Positions 5,469-64,000 of a stretch of 64,000 bases of DNA are shown piece after piece (the first letter of the stretch is position 1; every line of letters starts with the position of its first letter). The translations under genes were made by a program, and so were the position numbers. The DNA is taken from contig OZ024742.1 in NCBI GenBank assembly GCA_964016885.1, positions 157,294,001 to 157,358,000 of the forward strand. The letters are read 5' to 3'. The notes beneath the pieces were generated by a model, which searched no databases, was not told where the DNA came from, and was given only the letters and a program-made list of their open reading frames with translations. This DNA comes from Eledone cirrhosa (Eukaryota).

Positions 5469-5472
<4 letters not shown>

Positions 5473-5754
5473 ATAAAATGACAGGAGGATGGACTTGTGT
5501 AAATCCTTGAAAGGTTTATTATACTATGAACATTTCAATGACCGGGTTGCGTATGAATCCGGTGATATCATCAGGTATTCGAAATATAACAAATGAATGT
5601 AATAGATAAATATTTATCTATTACATTCATTTGTTATATTTCGAATACGTGATGATATCACCGGATTCATACGGAACCCGGTCATTGAAATGATCATAGT
5701 ATAATAAACCTTTCAAGGATTTGCACAAGTCCAGCTTCCTCTCATTTTATTATA
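5469..5754. repeat. Spacer-less ~143-bp-arm palindrome of a PLE pLTR containing an HHR motif in each arm
   Basis: Arms are reverse complements centred on 5611/5612. Left arm, minus strand 5521-5578: ATAC-CTGATGA-...ACCGG..CCGGT...-GAAA-TGTTCA-TA-GTAT, then AATAAA. Related solo copy at ~36105-36220. Confidence 0.85.
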
Positions 5755-5949: not shown

Positions 5950-5950
<1 letters not shown>

Positions 5951-6137
5951 CGAAGGAAATATGGTAAGGAACCAGGTCTACCATAACGCACCAAAGTACT
6001 CAATACTTAGGGTAGTAGAGTGGGTAATAAGAACGAGTAGGACCCCGACGGCGGAGCTCAAGCCGTTTCGACGGCTAATTCTGGACTGAATTAGCAATCG
6101 AAACTGCTTGAGCTCAGCCGTCGGGGTCCTACTAGTT

Positions 6138-6138
<1 letters not shown>
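5950..6138. mobile_element. pLTR-derived fold-back fragment in (TA)n (family also at 10545-10688 and 59618-60149)
   Basis: Inverted repeat 6031-6138 containing the HHR 3' half GAAAC(G/T)GC-TTGAGCTCA-GCCGTC-GGGGT; near-identical to 59618-59755. Confidence 0.7.
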
Positions 6139-10546: not shown

Positions 10547-10688
10547 CAAAGAAAGAGTGGTAAGAACGAGGTGGACCCTAACGCACCAGAGTATTCGATA
10601 CCGGCCAATTCGACAGCTAGATCCGAACATTTCGAATCTAGCTGTCGAAACGGTCTGAGCTCAGCCGTCGGGGTCTTGACTCTTTTCC
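10545..10688. mobile_element. pLTR fold-back fragment
   Basis: Hairpin TTCGACAGCTAGAT...ATCTAGCTGTCGAA followed by GAAACGGTCTGAGCTCAGCCGTCGGGGT; related to 5950-6138. Confidence 0.6.
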
Positions 10689-10704
10689 TATATATATATA
10701 TATA

Positions 10705-18291: not shown

Positions 18292-19044
18292 GTAATAATT
18301 GTCTCTACTTTAGGCACAAATAGTAATAATAATAAATTTGAAGACTAAAATCGAAAGAGGGCTCGATAAGGATAAATATATATACCTAGAGCAAATATTT
18401 ATTAATATATATACGATATATATATATTAATATATATATATATTTAGAATTATAGGATGTCTATATGAATATATATATATATAGACCTATATATGTCTAT
18501 ATAATTATATATGTAAAGGTATGTAATAGGCTCATATAGAATAGACATGTGTAGCTTCGCTGCCGAAAAGAATTTATTTTTCTCTACTTTTCACTGCCAA
18601 TATCTCACATTGCGTTGCTAGTATGTTCTGAGAATGTCAGACAACTGTTTCAAGATTTGTTAATCTTTCGTCAGTGACACTCAGAAAGAAGCGGCATGAA
18701 ATAGAATATAGTCTACATAAAATTTTGCGTGATAATCGTTTAATTTAGATTCACATTTGATTATAGCAATGCAGAAAACATTGGCTGGATGTGGCCATTA
18801 TCATGTAGTGCGAGCTTGACCGTTAATATTCAATTGGATGACATTTAAGACTAATAGAGTTTTATATGGAAACATATGTAAACGTATATTATATTCACCA
18901 GCAGAATAACCGCCCTCCGCGCGCTTTTCTGCTAGCATATATATAGTGTGTATATTGATATATGCAAATATATCTGCACATAGATATAATACGTAAATTG
19001 ACAATATGCACATAAACTGAACAAAGACTGTGTTACACTTACTT

Positions 19045-21880
19045 CTGTAATCAATTACGTGATTATGTAAACTGATGATGATGTAGCGTGTACCATTGCA
19101 ATGCCCGTTTAGAGGATCCAGATTTCTCAGAAGCATGATGTAACTGCCTTTCTTCAGTTTAAGCATGTGTGTTGGGAAGCCTGATGGGGTAAGTTTGTTG
19201 TTGAACTCAATTGGATATTGCAGTTCATTGTCTACTGTATCAGTGCTTCTGTAGATTATTTTATGACCAGGGAACTTGTTGACCATGCATTCATTCACCA
19301 ATCTTGCTACATCATTTGTTGGAGTGATAATGGCTCTATTTGCAAGCTAGAGTGAGTTTGTGTAGTTTCCTGGAAGATTTGTATACACAAAATCACACAG
19401 TCCAGACACATTACCATATTCCAGACAAAGTTCATTTAGGCAGACGAATTGTGAATGCACCTACAGTTAAAACTGCTGGAATGTTAGCATTTCCCACATC
19501 AGGAAGGTAGTTTGCAAACTGTCTTTCATCAGAATCCTCTGCATTCATTAACCGTTGATTGGTTGTCATCTCCATGGTTTCCACATTGTCCCAGAGATAG
19601 GATCTCTTGATGGTTGCCTCAAATATTTGTGGTCTAGCACGTACAACTGCAAGAATTTGCTTCCAGTCACCAGATAGTAATACTGTTAGACCCCCCCAAA
19701 ATGACCTTTTGCAATCTCGAACATCTTTGAAGCTCCTGTCAAGGCATTCAAAGATATGCTTATGTTCCATGCTTATCCCATCAATGATTAGCAGGTCAGC
19801 TTGCTGCATAAGTTTACCTGTGTCATTCCTTTTTGTGAAGAAACAAGTTGATTCAGAAGTCACGTTGAGAGGAATCTTGCAATTGGAATGAAGAGTTCTA
19901 CCTTTGTGAAGCAAAGTGACTGCTATTCCAGATATGGCAGTGGCAAGTGCAATTTTGTTTTTTAGATCGAAGATAATCCAATAGTATGTTTATGACATAT
20001 GTCTTTCCTGTACCTACACTTGCATTCAAGCAGAAAAGTATGCCTTCATTTTCATTTACAGAGGAGATTACTTTGTGAAAAATAACCAGTTGCTCAGGAT
20101 TCAATGTTGGCAGAAGTTTAGTTATGTTTGCTTTCAGTTGGTGTGTATTGAAATCAGTTTCTGCCATAAGAACCCTGTTGATATCTGGTATGGCAACAAT
20201 AGTTGAGTCTGACCGAGGAAGTCCATAGTTGACATGAATGTCCAAGCCATCATGTTGAAGTCTTTGTTGGATCTTCTTGCATGGACATGACTTGCACGTT
20301 GCATGGACATGATATCCTCTACAAGGACATCCTTCCATTTCTCCCAGAACTGCAGAGTGTTATTTGGCATGCTGTACAATAAAATGGTGCAGAAGATCTC
20401 TCGCAGCTGAGGACCAAGGCATTATGGTAGGGGCCTCTTCCATAGCTTTGTTTTTTTCTCCATCTTCATCTAACAGACCTGCATGCTTCTTGGATTGTTG
20501 GAAATTCAACTCCTTCAATTGTCCTAAAATCTTTGTAAGTTGACCTAGCCTTGTGATGTAGGATCATCCTGAGGTAATATCATTCAAATTGATGTCTTCT
20601 GAGAGACACTGTTGGGATGCGCCCAAGAGATTCACTCATAAATTGTTGATCACCATCCAGATGTCTCTTTTTTCTTATTTGCCACCTTTTCTTTGTCCAA
20701 GTGAAATATTTAGGAATATCAATATACAATATGTTTTGTGCCAGTAGGTCTCTAATATTCAGTTGTAAATATTCCACCAACGTAGTCATTGGCTGTCCCC
20801 TAGAAACAATACTTTCTTCCTGCCCTTGCTCATACACGACCATTTGTTCCCCATGTAAATGGCAAGGCAATTTTTCAGCTGGCGGTTTTCGATGATGTAA
20901 TGGAAATTTATACATTCTCCAGAATGCTTCACTGGCTGAGATGTACCGTGCATTGATATAGGTCTCAATCTCATTTTGGGCATGGACACAATTTCCTTGA
21001 TCATCCTTAATAGTGAAAGTGATCTTGTCTGATCCTTTTGTGATGTACTTATATAAGTATATAACAGCCTTGACACTGTGGACAACCTCACAATTGATGT
21101 GGCACTGATATATCAATGACAGGAAAAGGTTGTATGGAACAATCCAACGATTATCAACACTAAATTCTTGACCTTTAAGTTGGATTGTATGTGTGTGACC
21201 ACCATGCTGTCTATCCCTACTTCTATACTCCGGAAAGGAATTTTTGGCAAACAAATGTGGTTTGTCTGAAAGTCTTGGGATAACTGTTTGAGCAATGGCG
21301 TTGTTGTCCTAGCCGTTCATACATAAGCACATCGTATTAGCTTGTCCACGTGGGCCATGAATGTTGCAGGATGTGATGATCTTATGCAGAATTGGATTGG
21401 TCTCTTTATCAGAAATCTAACAGTACACTACCTGATCAATGGCATCAGCAGTTTTGGGCTTGCTATCTTCAGCCATTATCAGCAGAATATCAGCATGAGT
21501 GAGGCCTCGTTTTCTGCCACTCTATTGTAGCAGAATGAGCCTCAACTTTTCCTAGGACATACTTTTTTAGTATATGTCATCCATGAGGCTGTCATACTTG
21601 ATCTTGAAGACTCTTGCACAAATATCAGGACGGTCTCTAGGTTCTTCACCAGGGTGCAAACTATTTTTTTTATTTCATCCCAGTTAGTGTTAGTTGCTAC
21701 CGTGATGAAATAAGATGGCTTTCCCATGTGTCGAACCACAGCCATCAAATTCTCAAAGCAATCACTGTAGAAGCGAGGGACCATAGATTGAAGGAGGAAG
21801 AACACTTCTCCGGCCTGCACTTGTTTCAGACGTTAGACTGTGCCCATGCTGGGGTACCACGATTAAAGGATTTTCTTGAC
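19045..21880 (-). mobile_element. Helitron Rep/PIF1-helicase pseudo-ORF (decayed)
   Basis: Rep motifs GKPSYFITVATNTNWDEI, IEWQK-RGLTHA and VDNRWIVPYN...HINCEV...YLYKYITKGSD, ARYISASEAFWR. Helicase motifs GTGKT, GRTLHS, LLIIDGISM, GGLTVLLSGDWKQ, IMLLRNLDPLNGHCNGTR. Many frameshifts and stops. Confidence 0.93.
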
Positions 21881-22914: not shown

Positions 22915-23158
22915 TTCGAAATGCGCACATTGGGCCATCCTTCGCGCATGCACACATCGGACCAGCCGACGTGCACGCTCATTTAGGTCTAGACTTCGTG
23001 CATGCGCAGTACGGATCAGCCTTCGCCCATGCGCACTTCCGACCAGCCTTCGCGCATGCGCACTTCAGAGCAGTCTTCGCGCCTGCGCAACGCGGATCAG
23101 CCTAACGCATGCGCTTTTCGGACAAGACTTCGTGCATGCGTACTTCGGACCAGCCTTC
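22915..23158. repeat. 27-bp minisatellite, about 9 copies, with a GCGCATGCGCA core
   Basis: Consensus CTTCGCGCATGCGCACTTCGGACCAGC repeated in tandem. Confidence 0.9.
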
Positions 23159-24505
23159 CAAAAAGCGGGGCTGGACTAATTTTCTTTAACCTTCCTTGTA
23201 AAATCTTTGAGATAGTACCTAATGTACCTATGACAATCGGGACAACCTTGATTTCATGGGAGTTCCAAATCCTTTTTACTCCCATTTTACGTCCTGGTAT
23301 CGGTTAATTTTTTCCCTCTCCTTCACTTGCACTCTCGTGTCAAATGGGCAGGCTACATCTAGAATAAAGGCACGATCTTCTTTCATTGTCCAAAACCACC
23401 AGGTCAGGCCTATAGTGTTCGAACTTTTTGTCCGTCTGTATCCTAAAATCGCATAGCACCTCCACCTGATTGTTTTCTATCACCGACTCTGGTTTATGCT
23501 CATACCACTTCTCAGAATGTGGTAAATTGTTTATTTTGCATACGTGCCTGTGGGTTACCCTGCCCATCACATCATGACTCCAGCCTTTATAGTAAGTCTG
23601 GGCTAGTTGTTTACACTCGGATACAATGTGAGCCACAGTCTCCTCTCTCCCTCTTCCTAGATCCTACACAGTGAACTAGCCTCTTCCTTGTAAATATGGT
23701 GTTTCACCCACTTCGTTCTGAGGGCCTGCTCTTGAACAGCCATTAGCATTCCGTCTGTAGCTTTTTTCAGGTCTCCTTTTTAACCAGTTCCATGTCTGTG
23801 GATCTCTAAATTCAGTTTTCTTAAAGAAGGTACTATGAAGGGATTTTTCTGAATGTTGCTCTTCCTCCTTGTTGTTATTTCCTCCTTGGACATCCCCTGG
23901 TCTATTGTCCTCTCCTTCAGTACAATTTTGAGCATTGGCTCCCTACTGTCAGTCACATATTTGTGTAGGTTGTTTTTCTCCATCTGAACACAGTCCTCTA
24001 TGCTGATAAGACCTCTTCCACCTTCAGATCTCTTTAAGTGGAATTTATCGACATCACTCCTATTGTGGAACATTTTGTAGATAGTCAATAGTTTCCTAGT
24101 CTTCCTATCCATTTCTTTTTGTTCACCAACATTCCATTTTAAAATTCCCGCACTGTACCTAATAATAGACACAGCTCTGGAAGCCACTGCACTTATGACA
24201 TTCCTACTATTTAGAAGTGATTTTAATACGCTCCTTACTCTCCTTATGTACTCAGATCTTATCAATTCCTTCATTTATTTTGTTATTGATGTCATCTGCA
24301 TCCAGAACACCTAAATAGTTGAATCCCTCTTCAGTGTCAATTTCATTTATCATCTCAACTGTTGGTACCTGGATTCCGTTGCTTCTGCTCAGTTTACCCC
24401 ACTTCATCACCAGGACTCCACACTTATTAATATCAAATTCCATACATATATCATTGCTGAAAAGACGGACAGTCTCAACAAGTACATCCAACACCTTCTC
24501 ACTCC
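23155..24505 (-). mobile_element. R4/Dong-type LINE fragment (decayed; RT C-half, CCHC, REL endonuclease)
   Basis: Fragments align by eye to the 60811-62739 protein ([52 protein letters not shown]) with frameshifts. Confidence 0.9.
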
Positions 24506-24532: not shown

Positions 24533-25673
<1,141 letters not shown>

Positions 25674-37786: not shown

Positions 37787-37842
<56 letters not shown>

Positions 37843-37852
37843 ATATATATAT

Positions 37853-37916
37853 AAGTGGTTACACAAAAGTTAGTTCACCATACCGAGGTATGGTGAACTA
37901 ACTTTTGTGTAACCAC

Positions 37917-37918
<2 letters not shown>
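37853..37918. repeat. Perfect 31-bp hairpin made of the pLTR terminus of the 45130-47999 PLE family
   Basis: AAGTGGTTACACAAAAGTTAGTTCACCATAC-CGAG-GTATGGTGAACTAACTTTTGTGTAACCACTT; matches 45132-45166 with one substitution. Confidence 0.95.
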
Positions 37919-37953
<35 letters not shown>

Positions 37954-37956
<3 letters not shown>

Positions 37957-38390
37957 GATATTAACAAATGGAAACTATATTTATAAAACCATATCTATTT
38001 TATTATACATATTTCAAGGATACCATGTTAAATTATGGTATGCTTTCATCAGACAAAATACAATATATACCAGTTTTATAAATAAATATTGACATACCCT
38101 TTCAAAATGCAGCCGTTACTTTTGAAAGACATCAGGGATAGTGCATTTGTTTATTGTTTACTTATATTAGTAAGTCGTTACTAATATAAGTAAACAAATC
38201 CACTATCCATCATGTCTTCCAAAAGTAACGGTTACATTTTGAAAGGGTATGTCAATATTCATTTATAAAACTGGTATATATTGTATTTTGTCTGATGAAA
38301 GCATACCATAATTTATCATGGTATCCTTGAAATATGTATAATAAAATAGATATGGTTTTATAAATATAGTTTCCATTTGTTAATATCGTA
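37954..38390. repeat. ~215-bp-arm pLTR palindrome with an HHR in each arm
   Basis: Arms meet at GTCG 38174-38177; right arm CTGATGA(38292)-AAGCATACCAT..ATGGTATCCTT-GAAA-TATG-TA-TAATAAAA. Confidence 0.88.
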
Positions 38391-41374: not shown

Positions 41375-41704
41375 GTAGGAGGTGAGTTTTATTGTAGTAC
41401 AATAAAGCAATGCAGATATCGGATAAGAAGCACTCTACAGTTTGTAGGACTGGAGTATGCATAATATAAGATCAAAAGATGGTTAAAGGAGTTCCATGTA
41501 TTTTATTATGCGCATTTCAAAAACAAACATCATCATGCAATAATATTTGTGTTTTCATCAGATAAAACAGGAGAACATGATATGAAGGCTAAAAAACACT
41601 TGTGGATAGTGCAGTTTTAAATCAACATATGATGATGTTTGTTTTTGAAATGCGCATAATAAAATACATGGAACTCCTTTAACCATCTTTTGATCTTATA
41701 TTAT
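41375..41704 (-). mobile_element. Solo pLTR with inverted arms 41461-41536 / 41629-41704
   Basis: 76-bp inverted repeat; HHR on the minus strand; (TA)n flanks. Confidence 0.8.
41501..41567 (-). ncRNA. Minimal type I hammerhead ribozyme motif
   Basis: TTTTAT-CTGATGA-(AAACACAAATATTATT..GATGATGTTTGTTTTT)-GAAA-TGCGCA-TA-ATAAAA. Confidence 0.82.
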
Positions 41705-44870: not shown

Positions 44871-45073
44871 TTCGACCGTGAGTGGCCTCTGCTTATACAA
44901 TTTAGTTGCCTACATTTCTCAGGTATCATCCAATCGATATATCTGACAGCATTACCCTGTTGTCTTTCGTTTAATATTATTTGATTTTCCTCTTCCTTCA
45001 GTATTTTTTCCGTTTTTTGCCGAGTGTCTCTCGGACACCTAGGGTAAATAAACTATTGTTTATATCTACTGCT

Positions 45074-45133
<60 letters not shown>

Positions 45134-45161
45134 GTGGTTACACAACAGTTAGTTCACCATA

Positions 45162-45201
45162 CCGAGAACAATTGTTTCACCTTCGCGGATCTTCAGCTCG
45201 G
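45162..45201 (-). ncRNA. Minimal type I hammerhead ribozyme (3' pLTR); second copy at 47747-47786
   Basis: CCGAG-CTGAAGA-TCC-GCGAA-GGT-GAAA-CAATTG-TT-CTCGG. Confidence 0.82.
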
Positions 45202-45399
45202 GATGTGTATTGTTATAGGAACAGGAAGGACAACCGTACGAACGCGCATGCGCAGAAACTCGGTCACTTCACACAGGCAATACTAGACTGCGTGCGGGAG
45301 GTGTAAGGGAGATAACTGCGAAAGTCCGGAAAGTTTCTAGGTTGAAAATAAAATAAAAAAATTAAAATTAAAAATAAATTTACAAAGAATCAGTCCGGA

Positions 45400-47493
45400 G
45401 CCTTGTAGTTATGCAATAGATGTTTGGTGACGTGTGGACAACGTGTGAACAATTCACTCTCGTGTTTAGGCAATCACTATTGCGTAATCTCTTTAGAATA
45501 GTTATTCATTCGTCAATACATAAGCCATACGTCGGATTTCCCCTTGCGTATGTCTTGGACTTAGAGATGGTTTTCCATTGAATGGAGTAGCCTATACTTG
45601 ATTCCTTGAGGGACCAAACATGGCTCTCGAGTTTCGGGGATGAACGTCTGTCCGGGTATCTGAAGGTAGACTGGTGGTTCAGGAAACGCTCCTTGAATCG
45701 GCCCTCCGCCATGCCCACATAGGATTTGACATCCTGTTGTTCGTTTGGTCGGTTGGACGTGACCACAGCTTCATAGATTACAGCTGGTGTGTTGCATTGC
45801 TGTTGAAGGAGGCAAGCTTCAGGCTTACGGCAAGAGCACCCTGGTGGCGTGTTACTCCTAGGGCTGCTGGTGATGTGGGCCTTCATGTTCTTAGCGCAGG
45901 AGTATCTTAGTTTAACTTTGTGTCGGTTAAAGATGGAGCGGTATATATGACTTATGGGGAAGTGTCTATCTAAGAGGGCTAGAATTTTTTTTCCTACATT
46001 GGTTTTAACGTTGAGTGAGAAGGGGGGAGAGAACCAGATAGTTTGTCTATCGATGCGCTTACTTTTCTTAATGGTGTTGTTGCTAGTGGGAGAGTAGGTG
46101 ATAGATTGTGATAAGCCGCTGTTAGCCGACGCCGTGTTATAGTAGGGTGCCGCCCTGTCAAAGATAGCCTTATTAGAGGAGAGGTTTGAGAATCTAGTAC
46201 TGATATGCTTAACAAAGTTTCTAAAAATAGTGGGAGGGTGGCATGAGTCCTTGTGAATGTAATTAAGTTTCTCGTTTAGCTTATGGAGGGTCTGTGGACG
46301 TGTGTGCGAAGGTCTAAATTAATGTCTAAGAAATCTACGCTAGAGAGGTTGGTGGCTACTGTTATCCTAAGGCCTAACTCATTGAAAGTAGAAGCTAAGT
46401 CCTTTATAAACCGTTTGAGGTCGTGACCACCTTTATGGCTCGGTAAAGTCAGTCCATCGTCACGGTATATTCCCGTGTGGAAGTCCGGGAATCTAACACG
46501 TAATATGCCTAAGATAAAAAGGCCAACCAAGTCACATACGTCAGCACTGTCAAACGATCCCATGGAGACGTCGAACAGGTCTGAAGATGTAGACTTCCTT
46601 GCCCAGTCTACTCCGTCGTTGAAGAGGAGGGTTTTCCGGCAGTGAGCAATGATTTCCCTGTCTAAACCATCCGACGGTGGTATAAGTGGTAGCGAAGTCC
46701 AACGCTTTGTTTAACAGGGTCTCTGAGATCGACGGGTAAAAATCGACAATGTCAAACTGTGTGAACTTCGCTTTTTGGGATGTTAAGGAGTTAAACCACT
46801 TAATTACGGAGTCGCTGTTCTCCCACTGGGGCAGGTTGGACTTGGTCCTAATGGTCTTAACTATGTTTCCAAGTATGGCCTTACTGACTAGTCCCATATC
46901 TGTGCGTGCCGGGTTTATTAGTCTACAAGTGGGGTTAGAAGTAAAGTCTACCTTGTTATCTTTCAGGGTGAGGAACGCCTCCCGCTTAGCTAGAGATTGT
47001 GGCTCCTTATCTACCTTAATGTCGGTGGCGAGTTCCTTGGCTTCTGTATTAATGTCGTGTTAGGCCATAGGGTTAGCTTTCTTATATTTAGAAGTAATAG
47101 CGTTATGGGCCAGGTGGCGGAAAGTGGTGTTGTCGACTTCGTAAATATAAATAGTTTTGTCGGAAAGGACGAAAGTGTTATTAGAAGACCTAACTTTCTT
47201 AATATCGTTTCTGAGTTTCGTTTGAAAGGTGTTAGTGTGTTTGCAAAAGGAAATGTCAGCGACTAACTCAAGAAGGTCCGTCTCGAAAGGAGCAAGTTCG
47301 GTTACCTTAGGAGGGTAGGCTCTCGATTTCAGGTTGAGGGTGTTGTGCCTCTAATTTTGCCATCGAAAGCTAGGGCTAGCCATCTTAGGCGTCTGACGAC
47401 ATCTTCCGCTTTTTGTAGGAGGAGTTTTTGGTAAACATGGTTGGAGGGAGTTGGAATGTACTTCAGGGAATAATTCAGTTCGTATAAATCCAT
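45400..47493 (-). pseudogene. PLE RT + GIY-YIG endonuclease ORF (frameshifted)
   Basis: MDLYELNYSLKYIPTP...RRLRWLA; LPQWENSDSVIKWF...FTQFDIVDFYPSI; MGSFDSADVCDLVGLFIL; GIYRDDGL; VDFLDINLDL; CSCRKPEAC; VIYEAVV...YVGMAEGRFKERFLNH. Confidence 0.92.
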
Positions 47494-48826
47494 ACTGACG
47501 TTGATGAGACGCAAAATTGTGTAGGACACGAGGATATATAGAGCGCTCTCAGGGTAGTAAGCCAAACTCGCACGTGGTGAAAAATCTGCTAAAAGCCAAA
47601 CTTCTACGTAGAGAGGAGAATCTGCTGACCGCTACTGGAGACGTAGATAGTGGTGGAACACTGGAAGGTAATATCCGTAGTTGTAGAGCGCTCAGTCCAA
47701 GGGACGAGTTAGGTAGAAGTGGTTACACAACAGTTAGTTCACCATATCGAGAACAATTGTTTCACCTTCGCGGATCTTCAGCTCGGGACGTGTATGGTTA
47801 TAGGAACAGGAAGGAAAACCCTACGAACACGCATGCGCAGAAACTCGGTCACTTCACACAGGCAATACTAGACTGCGTGCGGGAGGTGTAAGGGAGATAA
47901 TTGCGAAAGTCCGGAAAGATTTTAGGTTGAAAATAAAACTCGTCCCTTGGACTGAGTGCTCTACCACTACGGATATTACCTTCCAGTGTTCCACCACTAT
48001 ATATATATATATATATAAATATATCAAGCAGTAGATATAAACAATAGTTTGTGTTTACTGGCTTAGCAATGTATACAATGAGCTTATTTACCCTAGGTGG
48101 CAGAGAGACACTCGTCAAAAAACGGAAACAATACTGAAGGAAGAGGAAAATCAAATAATATTAAACGAAAGACGACAGGGTAATGCTGTCAGATATATCC
48201 ATTGGATGATATCTGAGAAATGTAGGCAACTAAATTGTATAAGCAGAGCCCAATGTTAGAGAATAACGAATTTGAGCTTTTGTGAGTCTTCCACATCTAA
48301 TGCGTTAAAATGATTGATATAAAAGGACAAACTTTTATTTGTGAACAAGATGAAAACAAAGGCCTAAATTAGTTTTATCGCGTGAAATAGTAGAGTGAAA
48401 TATAACGATAGTGAAAAATATGGAAAATTATGAGCCACTGAAGATGGAGGCTGGGAGGTTGTGGGGAATGAAGAAGGTTTGAATGATTGCAATAGTGATC
48501 GGAGCATTGAGATGGATGTCGGAGAGCTTTGAAGACAGTGTAATTAGAATACAACAACAATAATATTAATAACGTTCTTTGTTAGACATCAAGGAAACAT
48601 TAAAAACCAGACAGAAGAGAAAAGGACGTCGCGAGGTGGAATTTATTTTGTGTAAAACGATAATAACAAGAAACCAATCGTAAATAACAAAGCAAACAAA
48701 TCAATAGAAGGGTGGCATCCGAAGGTCACACAAAGAAATATCCCACAACAGCTACGGGAAAACTGATCACAAATGCCATCTCCCAGTTCATATCCTCCAG
48801 TCTACAGGTGCATATCTCAGCCTACG

Positions 48827-51545: not shown

Positions 51546-51595
<50 letters not shown>

Positions 51596-52662
51596 TAATA
51601 AAATAATGAATAAACAAAGAAACAGTTCCTTATATTAATAAAATTCATCATTTTACGATCCTTTCTAGGATATATATGTGTTAGAGTTGGTATGCATATT
51701 CTATAGATCTATGTACAATATTTATACAAACTATCAGAGGGAATATACATACCTACACATATATATACTGTCTTCAGAAATAATGATATTTGTTTATTGA
51801 AAAAAAACAAAGATTCAATATAATAGGTCTGTTTGGGAACAGGTTTTGAATTGACCAATAGAGAGATAGTGAGGGTTAAGATAGTAATATAGTAGTAGAA
51901 GAACCTTAAATTATGGGTAGAGAAAGGTAGACTTCAGTTTTGGATGGAAAAGAATATTATGAATGAAGGATTATTTTAGGGAAGAAAATAGGTCGTATGC
52001 TGACCTCAGAAATAATTTTATTTGTTCATTGAATAAAACCAACAAAGATCTAATATATTCTGTCTGTTTGGTAAGAGGTTTAGAATTAACCAATAGAAAG
52101 TTAATAATTGGCCAAATGGTAAAATAGTAGTAATTGAAGCTTATTTTAGGGGTGAAAATAGGTCAGGTGGTCAGTAAAATGTATACAAGCAGTTGTTGTT
52201 ATAAAACAGTAATACCAATGCAAATATCTAAGGAGACTAAAGTTTTACGATAAGAGTGTTAGTGAAAAAAATACATCTATGAAATGAATATTAATTAATT
52301 TAATTGAAGGGTATATTTATATTGATAAAATTATACTAATACATATAATTCTAAACCTCTTACCAACCAGACAGAATATATTAGATCTTTGTTGGTTTTA
52401 TTCAATGAATAAATAAAATATTTCTGAGGTCAGCATACGACCTATTTTCTTCCCTAAAATATTCCTTCATTCATAATATTCTTTTTCATCCAAAACTGAA
52501 ATCTACCTTCCTCTACCCATAATTTAAGGTTCTTCTACTACTCTATTACTATCTTGATCCTCACTATCTCTCTATTGGTCAATTCAAAACCTGTTACCAA
52601 ACAGACTTATTGTATTGAATCTTTGTTTTTTTCAATAAACAAATATCATTATTTCTGAAGAC

Positions 52663-52760
52663 GCCGAAGTTGACTTTGCCTTTCATCCTTACGGGGTCGA
52701 TAAAATAAAGTACCAGTAATGCACTGGGTAATTGCTGGCCTTGTGCCTAAAGTAGAAATA
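52663..52760 (+). mobile_element. 5'-truncated SINE with 15-bp TSD
   Basis: TSD ATTATTTCTGAAGAC at 52648-52662 and 52761-52775; absent from the opposite arm (51770-51785). Confidence 0.92.
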
Positions 52761-52898
52761 ATTATTTCTGAAGACAGCATATATATGTGTAGGTATGTAT
52801 ATTCCCTCTGATAGTTTGTATAAATATTGTACATAGATCTATAGAATATGCATACCAACTCTAACACATATATATCCTAGAAACGATCGTAAAATAAT
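52761..52898 (+). ncRNA. Type I hammerhead ribozyme motif with ~105-nt extended stem II
   Basis: ATTATTT-CTGAAGA-[ATATATATGTGT..GGTATGTATATTC..GAATATGCATACC..ACACATATATAT]-GAAA-CGATCG-TA-AAATAAT. Confidence 0.72.
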
Positions 52899-53089
52899 GA
52901 TTTTTTTCAATATAAGGAACTGTTTCTTTGTTTATTCATTATTTTATTAATTTATCTTGACTCTGTTCTCCGTTTATTTTTCCCCGAAAGTAGTTTTTGA
53001 ATACATCTTCTCTTTTCATGATATCCGGATTACATTGAGTTCTTCATACGGATTGGACACTACCGTAAACTTTTGGTAGATTTATCTAC

Positions 53090-54426
<1,337 letters not shown>

Positions 54427-54593
54427 TGTAGATAAATCTACCAAAAGGTTTCGTTTTCATTTTGTTTCAATTTATCGTTTTCGGTATGCCTGACCGATTT
54501 AACTCACTCAATATGCAAATTAGGCTGCTCAGCCGTTAATTTTCATAAGGAAAGTATATACTTTCGAACGTTCAACTATCTGGCAGATGGGTA

Positions 54594-54638
54594 AACGGTG
54601 CTGATGATAGCTAACAAGCTTGAAACTAGTACATCGTT
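54594..54638 (+). ncRNA. Type I hammerhead ribozyme (family A, unit 1)
   Basis: AACGGTG-CTGATGA-TAGCT-AACA-AGCTT-GAAA-CTAG-TA-CATCGTT. Confidence 0.88.
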
Positions 54639-55061
54639 CCTGTGTCAGTGTTGAACAAAAAGGTGACGTTGTTGCCTTAACACCGTATGGCATAAATTCA
54701 GGCTGTTCAGTTTGTTTACACAACGAACAAAGCGACGTTAGCGCCGCTAAACTGATACGTGCATATATGTATGTGTACCTGCATGCATATGTATATATAT
54801 ATGTATAATATACATATATATGTGCATGCTACTGTACGTCTGTATACATATATGTATGTACGTATACATGCATACTTACATTTAAGTAAGTGCCATACTA
54901 AGAGTGAGAAATGAAATTTCGTTTTCATTTTGTTTCAATTTATCGTTTTCGGTATGCCTGACCGATTTAACTCACTCAATATGCAAATTAGGCTGCTCAG
55001 CCGTTAATTTTCATAAGGAAAGTATATACTTTCAAACGTTCAACTATCTGGCAGATGGGTA

Positions 55062-55106
55062 AACGGTGCTGATGATAGCTAACAAGCTTGAAACTAGTAC
55101 ATCGTT
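55062..55106 (+). ncRNA. Type I hammerhead ribozyme (family A, unit 2)
   Basis: Identical to 54594-54638. Confidence 0.88.
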
Positions 55107-55406
55107 CCTGTGTCAGTGTTGAACAAAAAGGTGACGTGGTTGCCTTAACACCGTATGGCATAAATTCAGGCTGTTCAGTCTGTTTACAAACGAACAAAGC
55201 GACGTTAGCGCCGCTAAGCTGATACGTGCATATATGTATGTGTACCTGCATGCATATGTATATATATATGTATATATATATATATATGTGCATGCTACTG
55301 TACGTCTGTATACATATATGTATGTACGTATACATGCATACTTACATTTAAGTAAGTGCCATACTAAGAGTGAGAAATGAAATTTCGTTTTCATTTTGTT
55401 TCAATT

Positions 55407-55444
<38 letters not shown>

Positions 55445-55573: not shown

Positions 55574-56325
55574 GGCTGGAGAATAGGGGGAAGGTGTTCC
55601 CCCGAAAAACCAGTATGACTCTAAAAACCGGTTTGTCTGTGTGTTTACATACAGAATAGCTGGGCCGCTCACTGTAAAGCGACCAGTGAAAGACTTGGTA
55701 CACCTACATATGTATACGTGTGTGTATTCATATACACACTAGTATTTCCGTATGCATATGTAGATGTACATTTTTAACTTAATTGTTTAAGCGTCAGTCA
55801 TACAAAAGTGAGTTACAAACGAAACGAAATTTAATTTCGTTTCGTTATTTGTTTTTATCGTCTCCGCTGAACCGGTGCGTACTCACACTCTATGCAAATT
55901 AGTCTGTCCACTACTAATTTTCATAGAAAAAGCATATAACGATATGTGCTTTTACAATTCTCCAGAAAGGCCGGTAGATAGGTAAATATTGCTGATGAGT
56001 TGTAACAACAACGAAACTAGTTCAATATTCCTTGTCTGGCTTTCTGGAGAATAGGGGGAAGGTGTTCCCCCGAAAAACCAGTATGACTCTAAAAACCGGT
56101 TTGTCTGTGTGTTTACATACAGAATAGCTGGGCCGCTCACTGTAAAGCGACCAGTGAAAGACTTGGTACACCTACATATGTATACGTGTGTGTATTCATA
56201 TACACACTAGTATTTCAGTATGCATATGTAGATGTACATTTTTAACTTAATTGTTTAAGCGTCAGTCATACAAAAGTGAGTTACAAACGAAACGAAATTT
56301 AATTTCGTTTCGTTATTTGTTTTTA
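55574..56325 (+). mobile_element. Retrozyme-like tandem array, family B: ~1.6 units of 468 bp
   Basis: CTGGAGAATAGGGGGAAGG at 55576 and 56044 (468 apart); one HHR. Confidence 0.85.
55985..56029 (+). ncRNA. Type I hammerhead ribozyme (family B)
   Basis: AATATTG-CTGATGA-GTTGT-AACA-ACAAC-GAAA-CTAG-TT-CAATATT. Confidence 0.88.
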
Positions 56326-56336
56326 TATATATATAC

Positions 56337-58366: not shown

Positions 58367-59266
<900 letters not shown>

Positions 59267-59617: not shown

Positions 59618-60149
59618 ACGAAGGAAATGTGGTAAGGAACCAGATGGACCATAACGCACCAAAGTACTCAATACTTAGCGTAGTAGAGTGGGTAATAGGA
59701 ACGAGTAGGACCCTGACGGCTGAGGTCAACCCGTTTCGACGGCTAATTCTGGTCTAAATAAAAATTGTTATTCTGGTAAATTAATAGACGAACTTCTCAG
59801 GGGCTAATTCCATATATGGTAAAAGGGATTGTCACAAGGATTGTGACCTCTTATCCTTATGATTCTGCTGTAGTTGTCACTTTCAACGCACGACTGGGTT
59901 TCCTCCACTCACTCTCCCTCTTTCTTCTACTGGCAAGTTCAGCTACCCCTACCTACCACAAAATGCCATGATAGAATCATGTGTCTCAGCAACAAACTTT
60001 TGACCAATCCTTGTGACAATCACTTTTACCATATATGGAATTACCCCCAGAGAAGTTCGGCTATTCATTTACTAGGATAAACATTTTCATTTAGTCCAGA
60101 ATTAGCCGTCGCAACGGCTTAAGCTCGGCCGTCGGGGTCCTACTCGTTC
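59618..60149. mobile_element. pLTR inversion (arms 59699-59843 / 60005-60149) with variant HHR
   Basis: CCCC-CTGAGAA-...-GAAAC-GG(C/G)-TTGA(G/C)CTCA-GCC-GTC-(G/A)GGGT read across the two arms. Confidence 0.7.
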
Positions 60150-60527: not shown

Positions 60528-60712
60528 TGTTTCTACTTTTGGCACAGGGCCAGCAATTATCCAGCACATTACAGGTACTTTATTTTACCGACCCCGTACG
60601 GATGAAAGGCAAAGTCAACCTCGGCGGGATTTGAACTCAGATCGTAAAGAGACGTAACTATGCTGGAAAGCATGGCGTCCGACCCTCTACCGATACTGCC
60701 AATCCACCGCCC
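60525..60712 (-). mobile_element. Full-length tRNA-derived SINE in (AAT)n
   Basis: Reverse complement of the 29478-29665-type sequence; (AAT)n on both sides. Confidence 0.92.
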
Positions 60713-60771
<59 letters not shown>

Positions 60772-60773
<2 letters not shown>

Positions 60774-62848
60774 TGTTACCAACTATAGACCTATCACATG
60801 TCTGCCCGTAATGTGGAAACTGTTGACGAGCATTGTGTCTGAGGAAATCTACCATCACCTCCACACAAACAACTTGTTACCGGACGAACAGAAAGGATGC
60901 CGAAAGAAGTCACGTGGTACAAAGGACCAGTTGCTTATTGATAAGATGGTAATGGGGAATTGCAGGAGGAGACACACTGATCTTGCCATGGGATGGATAG
61001 ACTACAGAAAGGCATTTGACATGGTGCCTCATTCCTGGATCACCAAAAGCCTGGAGATCTTCAGGGTGGCAGATAACATCAGACAGTTGCTGGGCAGGAG
61101 TATGGGGTCCTGGGAGACAGAGTTGACATCAACTGGAGTATCCTTGGGAAGCGTGAAGATCAAGAGAGGTAACTTCCAGGGAGATAGCCTGTCCCCTCTG
61201 TTGTTTGTCCTTGCCCTGATGCCCTTGACCATTATGCTGCGAAAAGTGAGAGCAGGATACAAGTTGGGAAGGGGAGAGCTTACCATCGATCACCTCCTCT
61301 TCATGGACGATCTTAAGCTCTTCGGGAAAAGTGAGAAGGAGTTGGATGTGCTTGTTGACACTGTCCGTATTTTCAGCAGTGATATATGTATGCAGTTTGG
61401 TATTGGTAAATGTGGAGTCATTGTGATGAAGAGGGGTAGGTTGAGCAGAAGTAACGGGATCCAGATACCAACAGGTGAGATGATAAAGGAAATTGACTCT
61501 GAGGAAGGATACAAGTATTTGGGCGTTCTGGAGGCTGATGGCATAAAGAACAAAAAAAGGAAGGAATTGTTAAGAACTGAATACATTCGGAGAGTAAGGA
61601 GCGTATTGAAGTCACATCTGAACAGCAGAAATGCCATAAGCGCAGTAAATTCCCGAGCTGTGTCTATTATTAGGTACAGTGCGGGAATTCTGAGATGGAA
61701 TGTTGCTGAACAAAAAGAAATGGATATGAAGACTAGGAAGCTATTGACTATCTACAACATGTTCCACAAGAGGAGTGATGTCGATAGACTCTACCTAAGG
61801 AGATCTGAGGGTGGAAGAGGTCTTATCAGCATAGAGGACTGTGTTCAGATGGAGAAAAACAACCTATACAAATACGTGACCTATAGTAAGGAGCCAATGC
61901 TCAGAGCTGTACTGAAGGAGGGGACAGTAGGCCAGGGGATATCCAAGGAGGAAATAACATCAAGGAGGAAGAGCAGCCTTAAGGGAAAATCCCTTCATAG
62001 TACCTTCTTTGAGAAAACTGAATTTAGAGATCCACAGACATGGAACTGGTTGAGAAGAGGAGACCTCAAAAAGGCTACAGAAGGAATGCTAATGGCTGCG
62101 CAGGAGCAGGCCCTCAAAACGAAGTGGTTGAAGCACCATATCTACAAGGAGGAGGCTAGCCCACTGTGCAGGATCTGTGGAGAGAGAGAGGAGACTGTGG
62201 CTCACATTGTGTCCGAGTGTAAACACCTAGCCCAGACCAACTATAAGGGCTGGAGACACGATGTGATGGGCAGGGTGATCCACTGGCACCTGTGCAAAGT
62301 AAACAATTTACCACATTCTGAGAAATGGTATGAGCATAGGCCAGAGGCGGTATTGGAGAACAATCAGGTGAAGGTGCTGTGGGATTTTAGGATACAGACG
62401 GACAAAAAACTGGAACACAATAGACCTGACCTGGTGGTTGTGGACAAAGAAAAAAGATCGTGCCTGATTGTGGATGTGGCCTGCCCGTTCGACACGAGAG
62501 TGCAAGAGAAGGAGAGGGAGAAAATTAACCGACACCAGGACCTAAAGTGGGAGGTGAAAAGGATTTGGAACTGCCATGAAGTCAAAGTGATCCCGATTGT
62601 CATAGGCGCACTGGGGACTATCTCCAAAGGTTTCCAGGGATGGTTAAAGAAAATCGGCCCCTTCACGCTTTTTGGAACGCTTCAAAAGGCATGCTTGCTT
62701 GGAACAGCAAGAACCCTCCGATACGTCCTGAATATCTGAGGCTGCAGGTAGTGGCTTGATATTCAATCCAACGGACTTTCCAGTTAACCAACATCAATGA
62801 CTGAGATTCAAGGAATAACAACAATAATAATAATAATAATAATAATAA
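60772..62848 (+). mobile_element. R4/Dong-type non-LTR retrotransposon, 5'-truncated, flanked by (AAT)n
   Basis: Uninterrupted ORF, short 3' UTR, (AAT)n tail. Confidence 0.92.
60811..62739 (+). CDS. Reverse transcriptase + CCHC zinc knuckle + restriction-like endonuclease (N-terminally truncated; the frame is also open upstream, [10 protein letters not shown])
   Basis: [18 protein letters not shown]; [15 protein letters not shown]; [11 protein letters not shown]; [11 protein letters not shown]; YKYLG; [18 protein letters not shown]; RHD; RPDLVV..IVDVACP..EK; PIVIGALG. Confidence 0.93.
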
Positions 62849-64000
62849 CATATATAAGAGAAACTCTAATAATTATAACTCAAACACACATACGCTAAAT
62901 AAATCGAGAATACGAACTAGATCTAAACCAGTCATATGATTTGTACCCCTTGCTTCGGTCGTAGTTAAAACACCAATTGCTATACTATTCTTTAAATCTA
63001 TTGTCACCTCTTTCCCTACTCAACATAAATACCATTCCATTTTTAATAGACATACCATTAAATTCGCAAATATTACAACCAGTAACATGGCCAAAAACAA
63101 CGTCAAATTAAACGCCAAAATCCTAAAACCAAACCAACATAATGTTCATAATAATAGAGTTAACATTAATGATACTAAACCAAAATGTAATTGTAGAAAT
63201 AAAACTAATTGCCCTTTGCAAAATAATTGTTTACATAGTAATTTGGTTTTTGCACCGAAAAACTGATCACAAAGCATACAATTACATTGGATCAACCTCA
63301 TCCACATTTAAAGCTCGTTTTGCGAACCATAAATGCTCATTCTCGAACTCTAAGAGGAAATCATCCACGTCTTTATCACAGCTCATATGGCCTTTAAAAG
63401 AGAAGAATTTAAAATACAATATTCTTTGGACAAAACTTCGGAACTGTGGAATTTACCGCCACACTAGTATATCAAGTAACTGCCCGCTCTGTACAATGGA
63501 GACCCTGTTGATTATTAATAATTACGAGACCCTAATTAACAAAAGAATTGAATTATTCTCTAGTTGTCTCCATAAAGCTACGTCCACTTTTTTAGCCTCA
63601 CATAAAACGAGAAAGAAAGAAACAATTACACCAAACCAATAACAACTCGGTTACCAGGAATATATAATCAACAGTTAAAAAAATATATTATTTGTTAACT
63701 TTGATAAATACCATCATTTCTTTATCTCCTTATTTCTCCATCTATCTTCCTATCTATGCCTATAATTTAGTATGATACCTAATCCTTACATATTTACGGA
63801 ATTTATTTAACTGTGAATTTTTAATACATTTGTGATCTCTTAAATTTTAGTTTAATACCCAATCCATAAATTTTTATGAAACTTATCTATAACTCTAAAA
63901 TTTTAATGAGTTTTTAATCTATTATTTATAGTATAATATAGCATACATTTCTTTTAAATATATTTACTGCTCTATAACATCTAAAATTTGAGACGGATTC

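Follow-up and report, generated by a model that had tools for sequence, protein, structure and literature searches.

The window analysed here is a stretch of 64,000 nucleotides (64 kb) from Eledone cirrhosa (contig OZ024742.1, positions 157,294,001 to 157,358,000), in which the 66 bases at 37853–37918 form a perfect inverted repeat. The hairpin can be read as a 31-bp stem with a CGAG loop, as a preliminary description of this DNA had claimed, or equally as 32 bp around a GA spacer, and it lies far above chance expectation (z = −13 against shuffled sequences). It is flanked by two (TA)n target tracts, the left one at 37790–37852 with a single TG interruption and the right one at 37920–37955, and consists of two head-to-head copies of a pLTR 3′ end, corresponding to the ~36 terminal nucleotides of this repeat in a Penelope-like element (PLE) on the minus strand at 45131–47998. 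In the numbering used here, +1 is the first base 3′ of a predicted hammerhead ribozyme cut (45166 in the 3′ pLTR, 47751 in the 5′ pLTR). The left arm with the loop (37853–37887) corresponds to +1 to +35, with its sense on the minus strand, and begins in the sense reading at the C that follows GTT, which agrees to within one base with the earlier claim that it reaches the first base after the predicted cut; the right arm (37887–37919, plus strand) corresponds to +4 to +36. The G at 37887 is common to both arms and places the turn at either +1/+5 or +2/+4, a one-base ambiguity. Both arms carry T at +20 where both pLTRs have G, the shared variant pointed out previously, and they are identical to each other at 32 of 32 positions while differing from the pLTRs. 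Just outside the stem, at +36, the right arm has C as in the element and the left arm has A. Both arms represent 3′-terminal element sequence ending at one of the family 3′ ends (47714) in a (TA)n target, as in head-to-head PLE insertions, and the tail that such insertions may carry on one arm is absent, which is compatible with membership in this class, the published descriptions calling the tail optional.

An artefact of sequencing or assembly, in which a fold-back chimera formed between two TA tracts, is hardly credible. The insert, as assembled, does sit between two self-complementary TA tracts, but the flanks outside these tracts are unrelated to each other, and structures of this pattern recur throughout the window.

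The source element is ordered, in its sense direction, as (TA)n, inverted arm, 5′ pLTR, tail, ORF, 3′ pLTR, and (TA)n. The inverted arm (47937–47998, plus strand) covers the tail only (+42 onward), is identical at 59 of 61 positions, is the only one of the two arms with a tail, and meets the 5′ pLTR at a junction with a 2-nt microhomology located away from the cut. The 5′ pLTR (47714–47938, minus strand) carries the second copy of the hammerhead, starts 187 nt upstream of its own cut, and is followed by the tail (47644–47713, minus strand), the far end of which, 47647, is the second TA-joined 3′ end of the family. The 3′ pLTR (45131–45353, minus strand) reaches the tail-less 3′ end before (TA)n and is identical to the 5′ pLTR at 216 of 225 positions. 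Between them, an ORF with approximate ends at 45380–47493 (minus strand) has the motifs of a reverse transcriptase (YRDD at 46467, YVG/RFLNH), a Cys-rich linker with four cysteines at 45838, and a GIY-YIG endonuclease. Frameshifts and stops interrupt the ORF, and the element previously described as complete is therefore complete in its extent but not in its coding capacity. An Atlas search with the element protein recovered animal clusters with GIY-YIG families (score 0.95), while neither Pfam, on the two ORF fragments, nor a word-based search of longer proteins gave a match. The order of a reverse transcriptase followed by a C-terminal GIY-YIG endonuclease is that of endonuclease-bearing (EN+) PLEs, whose published layout likewise combines a partial tandem with direct pLTRs, an inverted truncated 5′ copy, and a one-sided tail (PMC8557442; PMC3846280, as far as these sources were available). 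Going by the Cys-rich linker, the source element probably belongs to the Neptune clade. The flanks of the full-length element at 44883–45070 and 48030–48252 are inverted copies of each other (180 of 188 positions identical, plus a 35-nt indel), with a divergence similar to that of the element's own repeats; either a target of ~220 nt was duplicated in inverted orientation on insertion, or the PLE inserted into an older fold-back, at its TA centre.

A structure-aware scan found 15 hammerhead motifs in the window, with one type I motif in each pLTR. The minimal motif in the 3′ pLTR (45162–45201, minus strand) has its predicted cut between 45167 and 45166, a position derived from the motif with numbering by the established hammerhead convention and well predicted provided that the putative ribozyme cleaves. 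Stem I has 5 bp (4 in the 5′ copy) and closes on the cut, the CUGANGA and GAAA core is intact with U16.1-H17 and the triplet GUU, stem II has 2 bp, and stem III has 2 bp with a palindromic loop. Published PLE hammerheads likewise have a type I core, a short stem I, a 2-bp stem III with a palindromic loop, and one copy per pLTR, but the pLTR motif differs from them in the shortness of its stem II and in having U-U at positions 10.1/11.1, where the G10.1-C11.1 pair is highly conserved in the published consensus (PMC4209133, in the available part). Two further motif families in the window (54601/55069 and 5574) also have U-U at these positions. According to the same source, as far as available, minimal PLE motifs of such a kind cleave poorly in vitro, and only as dimers. 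Rfam gave no hammerhead match on the pLTR, and the lowest-energy fold of the pLTR lacks the hammerhead, which was counted neither for nor against the motif because it is expected to be dimer-dependent and hence not the lowest-energy state. In divergent subfamilies represented by loose-end consensuses (47768, 47785/6), the core and the 5′ strand of stem I are conserved, with variation at position 7 and in loop II, a pattern as expected of a constrained ribozyme, judging from these consensuses; the recurrence of U-U in the two further motif families likewise speaks for constraint.

Other fold-backs in the window show where such structures turn relative to their hammerheads. There are 17 inverted matches, of which 12 structures were measured, the others being weak, short, or contained in the 52-kb structure as sub-hits. 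Beside the hairpin, six fold-backs have an assignable cut, five of them from other families, and none of the six turns at the predicted cut, the nearest inner end lying at −5. The full element's own inversion has inner ends at +42/−187, fold-back 24535–25474 at −5, 41464–41701 at −30 and about −122, 5469–5754 at −88, and 51593–52952 at −546, while 37956–38388, which belongs to another hammerhead-bearing family and shares the hairpin's own TA tract as an internal control, turns about 162–165 nt upstream of the cut. Far from the cut, two of these hammerhead-bearing fold-backs have apices as tight as that of the hairpin (spacers of 0 and 6 nt), and a tight turn therefore needs no ribozyme cut. 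No hammerhead was found by the structure-aware scan in the five further fold-backs. In all eight other fold-backs checked, a TA run lies 0–3 nt from one arm and 36–155 nt of extra sequence on the other (for example, TA at one arm and the extension at the other in 5469–5754, 24535–25474, 37956–38388, 41464–41701, and 51593–52952), and in three of the eight this extension is the element tail by homology. The hairpin is thus the only one of nine fold-backs that is tail-less on both arms, and it may have arisen by another route than the others. A separate fold-back family (5950–6138, 10560–10690, and 59618–60149) shares an 81-nt one-sided extension, has variable turns and no hammerhead found, and could be the end of a Naiad-like PLE.

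Public sequencing runs extend this comparison to the family as a whole. Four of eight public runs (two contig sets from one sample, one from another organism, and one raw RAD library; none of the runs listed is an RNA run) were mapped to one element unit, 45354–47938, with a reference that had A for G at +5. The family has two 3′ ends joined to (TA)n, at 47714 (+38) and 47647 (+105), represented by 46 and 45 contigs in run X1, 51 and 54 in X2, and 1 each in X5; the full element's inverted arm stops at 47647, and both hairpin arms stop at 47714. Depth shows no step at the cut in these runs, the values at +29 and −6 being 802,536/891,783 (X1), 694,257/786,320 (X2), and 91.6/78.9 (X5), and the lack of a fall indicates that most copies came from uncut RNA, although depth summed over contigs is a coarse measure, in which a 10–20% class could stay hidden. 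The 15 of 89 joints listed include 11 strand-switch entries, 10 of them distinct, with 45948 and 45950 counted as a single junction; the one at 45982 adjoins AATT and is a possible ligation chimera, and dropping it gives nine. None of the 10 distinct strand switches listed has a coordinate at the cut, the nearest being +19/−34 and none lying within 15 nt. An identical +1/+4 junction present in many copies should have ranked among those listed, if assembly kept it, because single contigs of depth 11–25 were listed. The run data are partly blind to the hairpin class: palindromic junctions may be lost in assembly, 1362 loose ends lie beyond those listed, and the RAD library cannot show hairpins like 37853–37918, many of its fragments stopping at AATT 4–7 nt upstream of the cut and its reads beginning at a site 81 nt upstream.

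Several signals near the cut in these runs were rejected. Run X6 has 1122 loose ends at position 47755 and 1683 read ends at position 47758, which resemble a pile-up near the cut but coincide with AATT, and read starts in this run coincide with a GCATGC site; the pile-ups are inferred from these restriction sites to be RAD library ends. Similarly, summed contig depth over 47616–47789 (hammerhead, 3′ end, and tail) is ~10-fold that of the rest of the pLTR in X1 and X2, and this was not accepted as a sign of truncation, the upstream loose ends being divergent versions of the same motif; the pattern suggests that many subfamilies or short derivatives have this 3′ module in common. In metagenome contigs, 45 loci matched an 18-nt motif of the pLTR, all of them chance matches in which homology stops at the motif.

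In vitro, the Poseidon element of Anolis starts reverse transcription at two sites, one at each border of its tail (Frangieh 2024, PMC11167929, in the part available), and the family 3′ ends at 47714 and 47647 match these sites. The two systems also have in common an AT-rich target, an upstream hammerhead, and a mainly uncut template, and in the available text of that study cleavage was dispensable and RNA ends were not seen at the site (PMC11167929). They differ in the tail, ~67 nt here, and in the Cys-rich, Neptune-like linker of the present element, and fold-back products are not described in what was available of the Poseidon study (PMC11167929). Inverted pLTR copies of EN+ PLEs are head-to-head with tails outward, palindromic junctions, and (TA)n (PMC3846280; Craig 2021, PMC8557442, each as far as available), the textbook layout also seen in the window's full element. 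The palindromes at these junctions were read as self-priming by Arkhipova 2013, and both the inverted pLTRs with palindromic junctions and this cause are therefore already published; in the accessible part of that paper, self-priming is placed on an antisense template and is not linked to a ribozyme (PMC3846280). The hairpin differs from these inverted copies in having just two ~35-nt arms, no tail, and one junction at the predicted cut.

On this basis, the hairpin is very probably the minimal head-to-head stub of an abortive insertion of an EN+ Penelope-like element. The sequence anatomy, the two 3′ ends, and the junction positions are observed directly, and the enzymatic steps are all deduced from them. 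The GIY-YIG endonuclease would nick the (TA)n tract, and the TA end would prime reverse transcription at the tail-less 3′ start site of the element; the cDNA would halt after ~35 nt, on the 3′ strand of hammerhead stem I; synthesis would turn back through a 2–4-nt loop and copy the cDNA out to the same end; and the outer end would then be joined to the opposite side of the (TA)n tract. At the junction, the sequence fits a turn either through a loop of 4 nt or through a 2-nt loop closed by a single C-G pair. Fold-back turns appear to be a general habit of PLE insertion in the Eledone cirrhosa genome, mostly on uncut RNA and at scattered positions. The cDNA stop of the hairpin probably reflects a stall or break, its position on the 3′ strand of stem I being fortuitous; quite possibly, the stop reflects instead an RNA end made by the cut.

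The latter reading, a special case compatible with an abortive insertion, takes the hairpin as a fossil of in vivo hammerhead cleavage, in which the reverse transcriptase ran off an RNA end at +1 and the cDNA snapped back, and it is a tentative but serious possibility for this copy only. The inner end at +1/+2 speaks for it; a match to the cut within one base, against a prior of 0.4–4% per event (arm lengths uniform over 20–120 up to 20–1000 nt, with a 2-nt target at either end), counts against a chance stop. Tails are absent on both arms, unlike in the eight other fold-backs, which favours self-copying because a self-copied tail-less cDNA gives none. The conservation of the core and stem I 5′ strand in the divergent subfamilies is in line with it, and R2 protein snap-backs after full-length cDNA have been reported (PMC11371274, in the part available). 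However, the case is a single one noticed post hoc, and at least one chance match among seven fold-backs has a probability of 3–24%; depth has no step at the cut; a motif without G10.1-C11.1, with a 2-bp stem II and a need to dimerize, would be expected from the available part of PMC4209133 to cleave poorly in vitro; and priming would depend on a single base pair, the cDNA end at +1 forming no stable hairpin. Assuming that 1–5% of fold-backs come from cut RNA, the posterior for a cut-RNA origin of the hairpin is 0.13–0.76. The geometry given in the preliminary description was confirmed, and its account of this single copy by run-off and snap-back stays a fair but tentative reading.

The same description had extended this mechanism to inverted pLTRs in general, and here the evidence goes the other way. 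That run-off from hammerhead-cut RNA is their general source is extremely improbable: the hairpin itself and the arm of one other family, which ends 5 nt from its cut, agree with it, but none of the 6 other fold-backs in the window and none of the 10 listed run junctions turn at the cut (0 of 16 pooled, or 0 of 15 clean events, with an upper 95% bound of ~18%), depth shows no step, the full element's cDNA went 187 nt past the cut, and Naiads have inverted copies without canonical hammerheads in the part of PMC8557442 available. As far as turning points could be plotted against the hammerhead, as had been suggested as a check, they lie elsewhere than at the cut, which counts against the general mechanism. 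The variant shared by both arms, offered as a sign of snap-back, fits equally well with two primings from one source copy or with later correction between the arms.

In the former case, both (TA)n strands would be nicked, each would prime a cDNA on element RNA, and the two cDNAs would be joined head-to-head via the G at the centre. This is possible but rather unlikely. It accounts for the register difference at the outer ends with no later mutation, where pure self-copying has to invoke a single subsequent G-to-T change at the left outer edge, as only the right arm has C at +36; the full element's inverted arm stops at the family's second 3′ start site; an extension is found on one arm only in eight of eight other fold-backs; and the Anolis protein nicks and extends both strands (PMC11167929, as far as available). 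Both hairpin arms, however, end at one start site, and both cDNAs must stop at most 4 nt apart, which needs a common barrier. In the latter case, a longer palindromic insertion would have lost its centre and intrastrand correction would have equalised the arms, leaving the apex uninformative on the RNA. Long palindromes are known to be unstable in their centre, and the arms are identical to each other while both depart from the pLTRs. This origin is nevertheless improbable, given that the would-be deletion has only 1 nt of microhomology and that nearby, much longer palindromes of 433 and 286 bp persist with arms 95–96% identical.

The preferred reading remains the abortive insertion. The hairpin is real and, apart from one intriguing coincidence, an ordinary PLE stub; at most it hints, as a single case, at occasional RNA cleavage, and it does not account for the inversions in general. 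R2 offers the closest likeness for the cut-RNA route, with a proposed run-off of the reverse transcriptase at a ribozyme-made 5′ end and self-priming of the cDNA (PMC3774820; PMC11371274, both as far as available). The R2 ribozyme, which is HDV-like, cuts at the 5′ junction of the element and sets its normal 5′ junction (PMC3774820, in the available part), whereas the PLE copies here mostly run through the hammerhead, and an R2-like route is therefore at most a minority one. A pile-up of genomic junctions at the cleavage site like that of R2 was not seen in the window or among the run junctions listed, where a minority class could remain. Such a minority route is possible but rather unlikely; reverse transcription of hammerhead-cut PLE RNA would proceed to its 5′ end and the cDNA would copy itself, leaving a distinct class of tail-less hairpins of ~66 bp that all turn at +1. 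No report mapping PLE inversion points to the hammerhead cut was found in the literature searched, most subscription papers lying outside that search. If the route is real, hairpins turning at +1 would for the first time document germ-line cleavage by a PLE hammerhead, here a U-U variant, in a genome sequence, and tight fold-back apices could in general be read as maps of the 5′ ends of template RNA. The hairpin class bears on whether PLE hammerheads cut in vivo, and why, and its recurrence would be direct evidence of such cutting. These hairpins can be counted in any good Eledone cirrhosa assembly, the family being very abundant there; at present one suggestive copy stands against 16 junctions elsewhere, and its value lies in offering a sharp, cheap test and not in a result.

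Other features of the window include further hammerheads and mobile elements. In a hammerhead at 52768–52892, the stem II region extends over 105 nt and stem I is a perfect helix of 7 bp; the motifs at 41561 and 5574 have a long stem II as well. Near-identical tandem units of ~470 nt occur at 54449–55409, 55574–56326, and 58546–59229; they are retrozyme-like and fall into two sequence types, each with a compact type I hammerhead and one with U-U at 10.1/11.1, and Rfam HH9 matches them at 38.6 bits, below gathering. A fragment at 63127–63642 has GIY-YIG-like motifs of another PLE family when read by eye, with no Pfam match. Broken ORFs at 18801–21308 presumably resemble Helitron helicase/Rep. 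A 693-aa open frame at 60658–62739 with RVT_1 and zf-RVT is a non-LTR retrotransposon unrelated to the PLE, and 23152–24503 is a decayed inverted copy of it, 87% identical.
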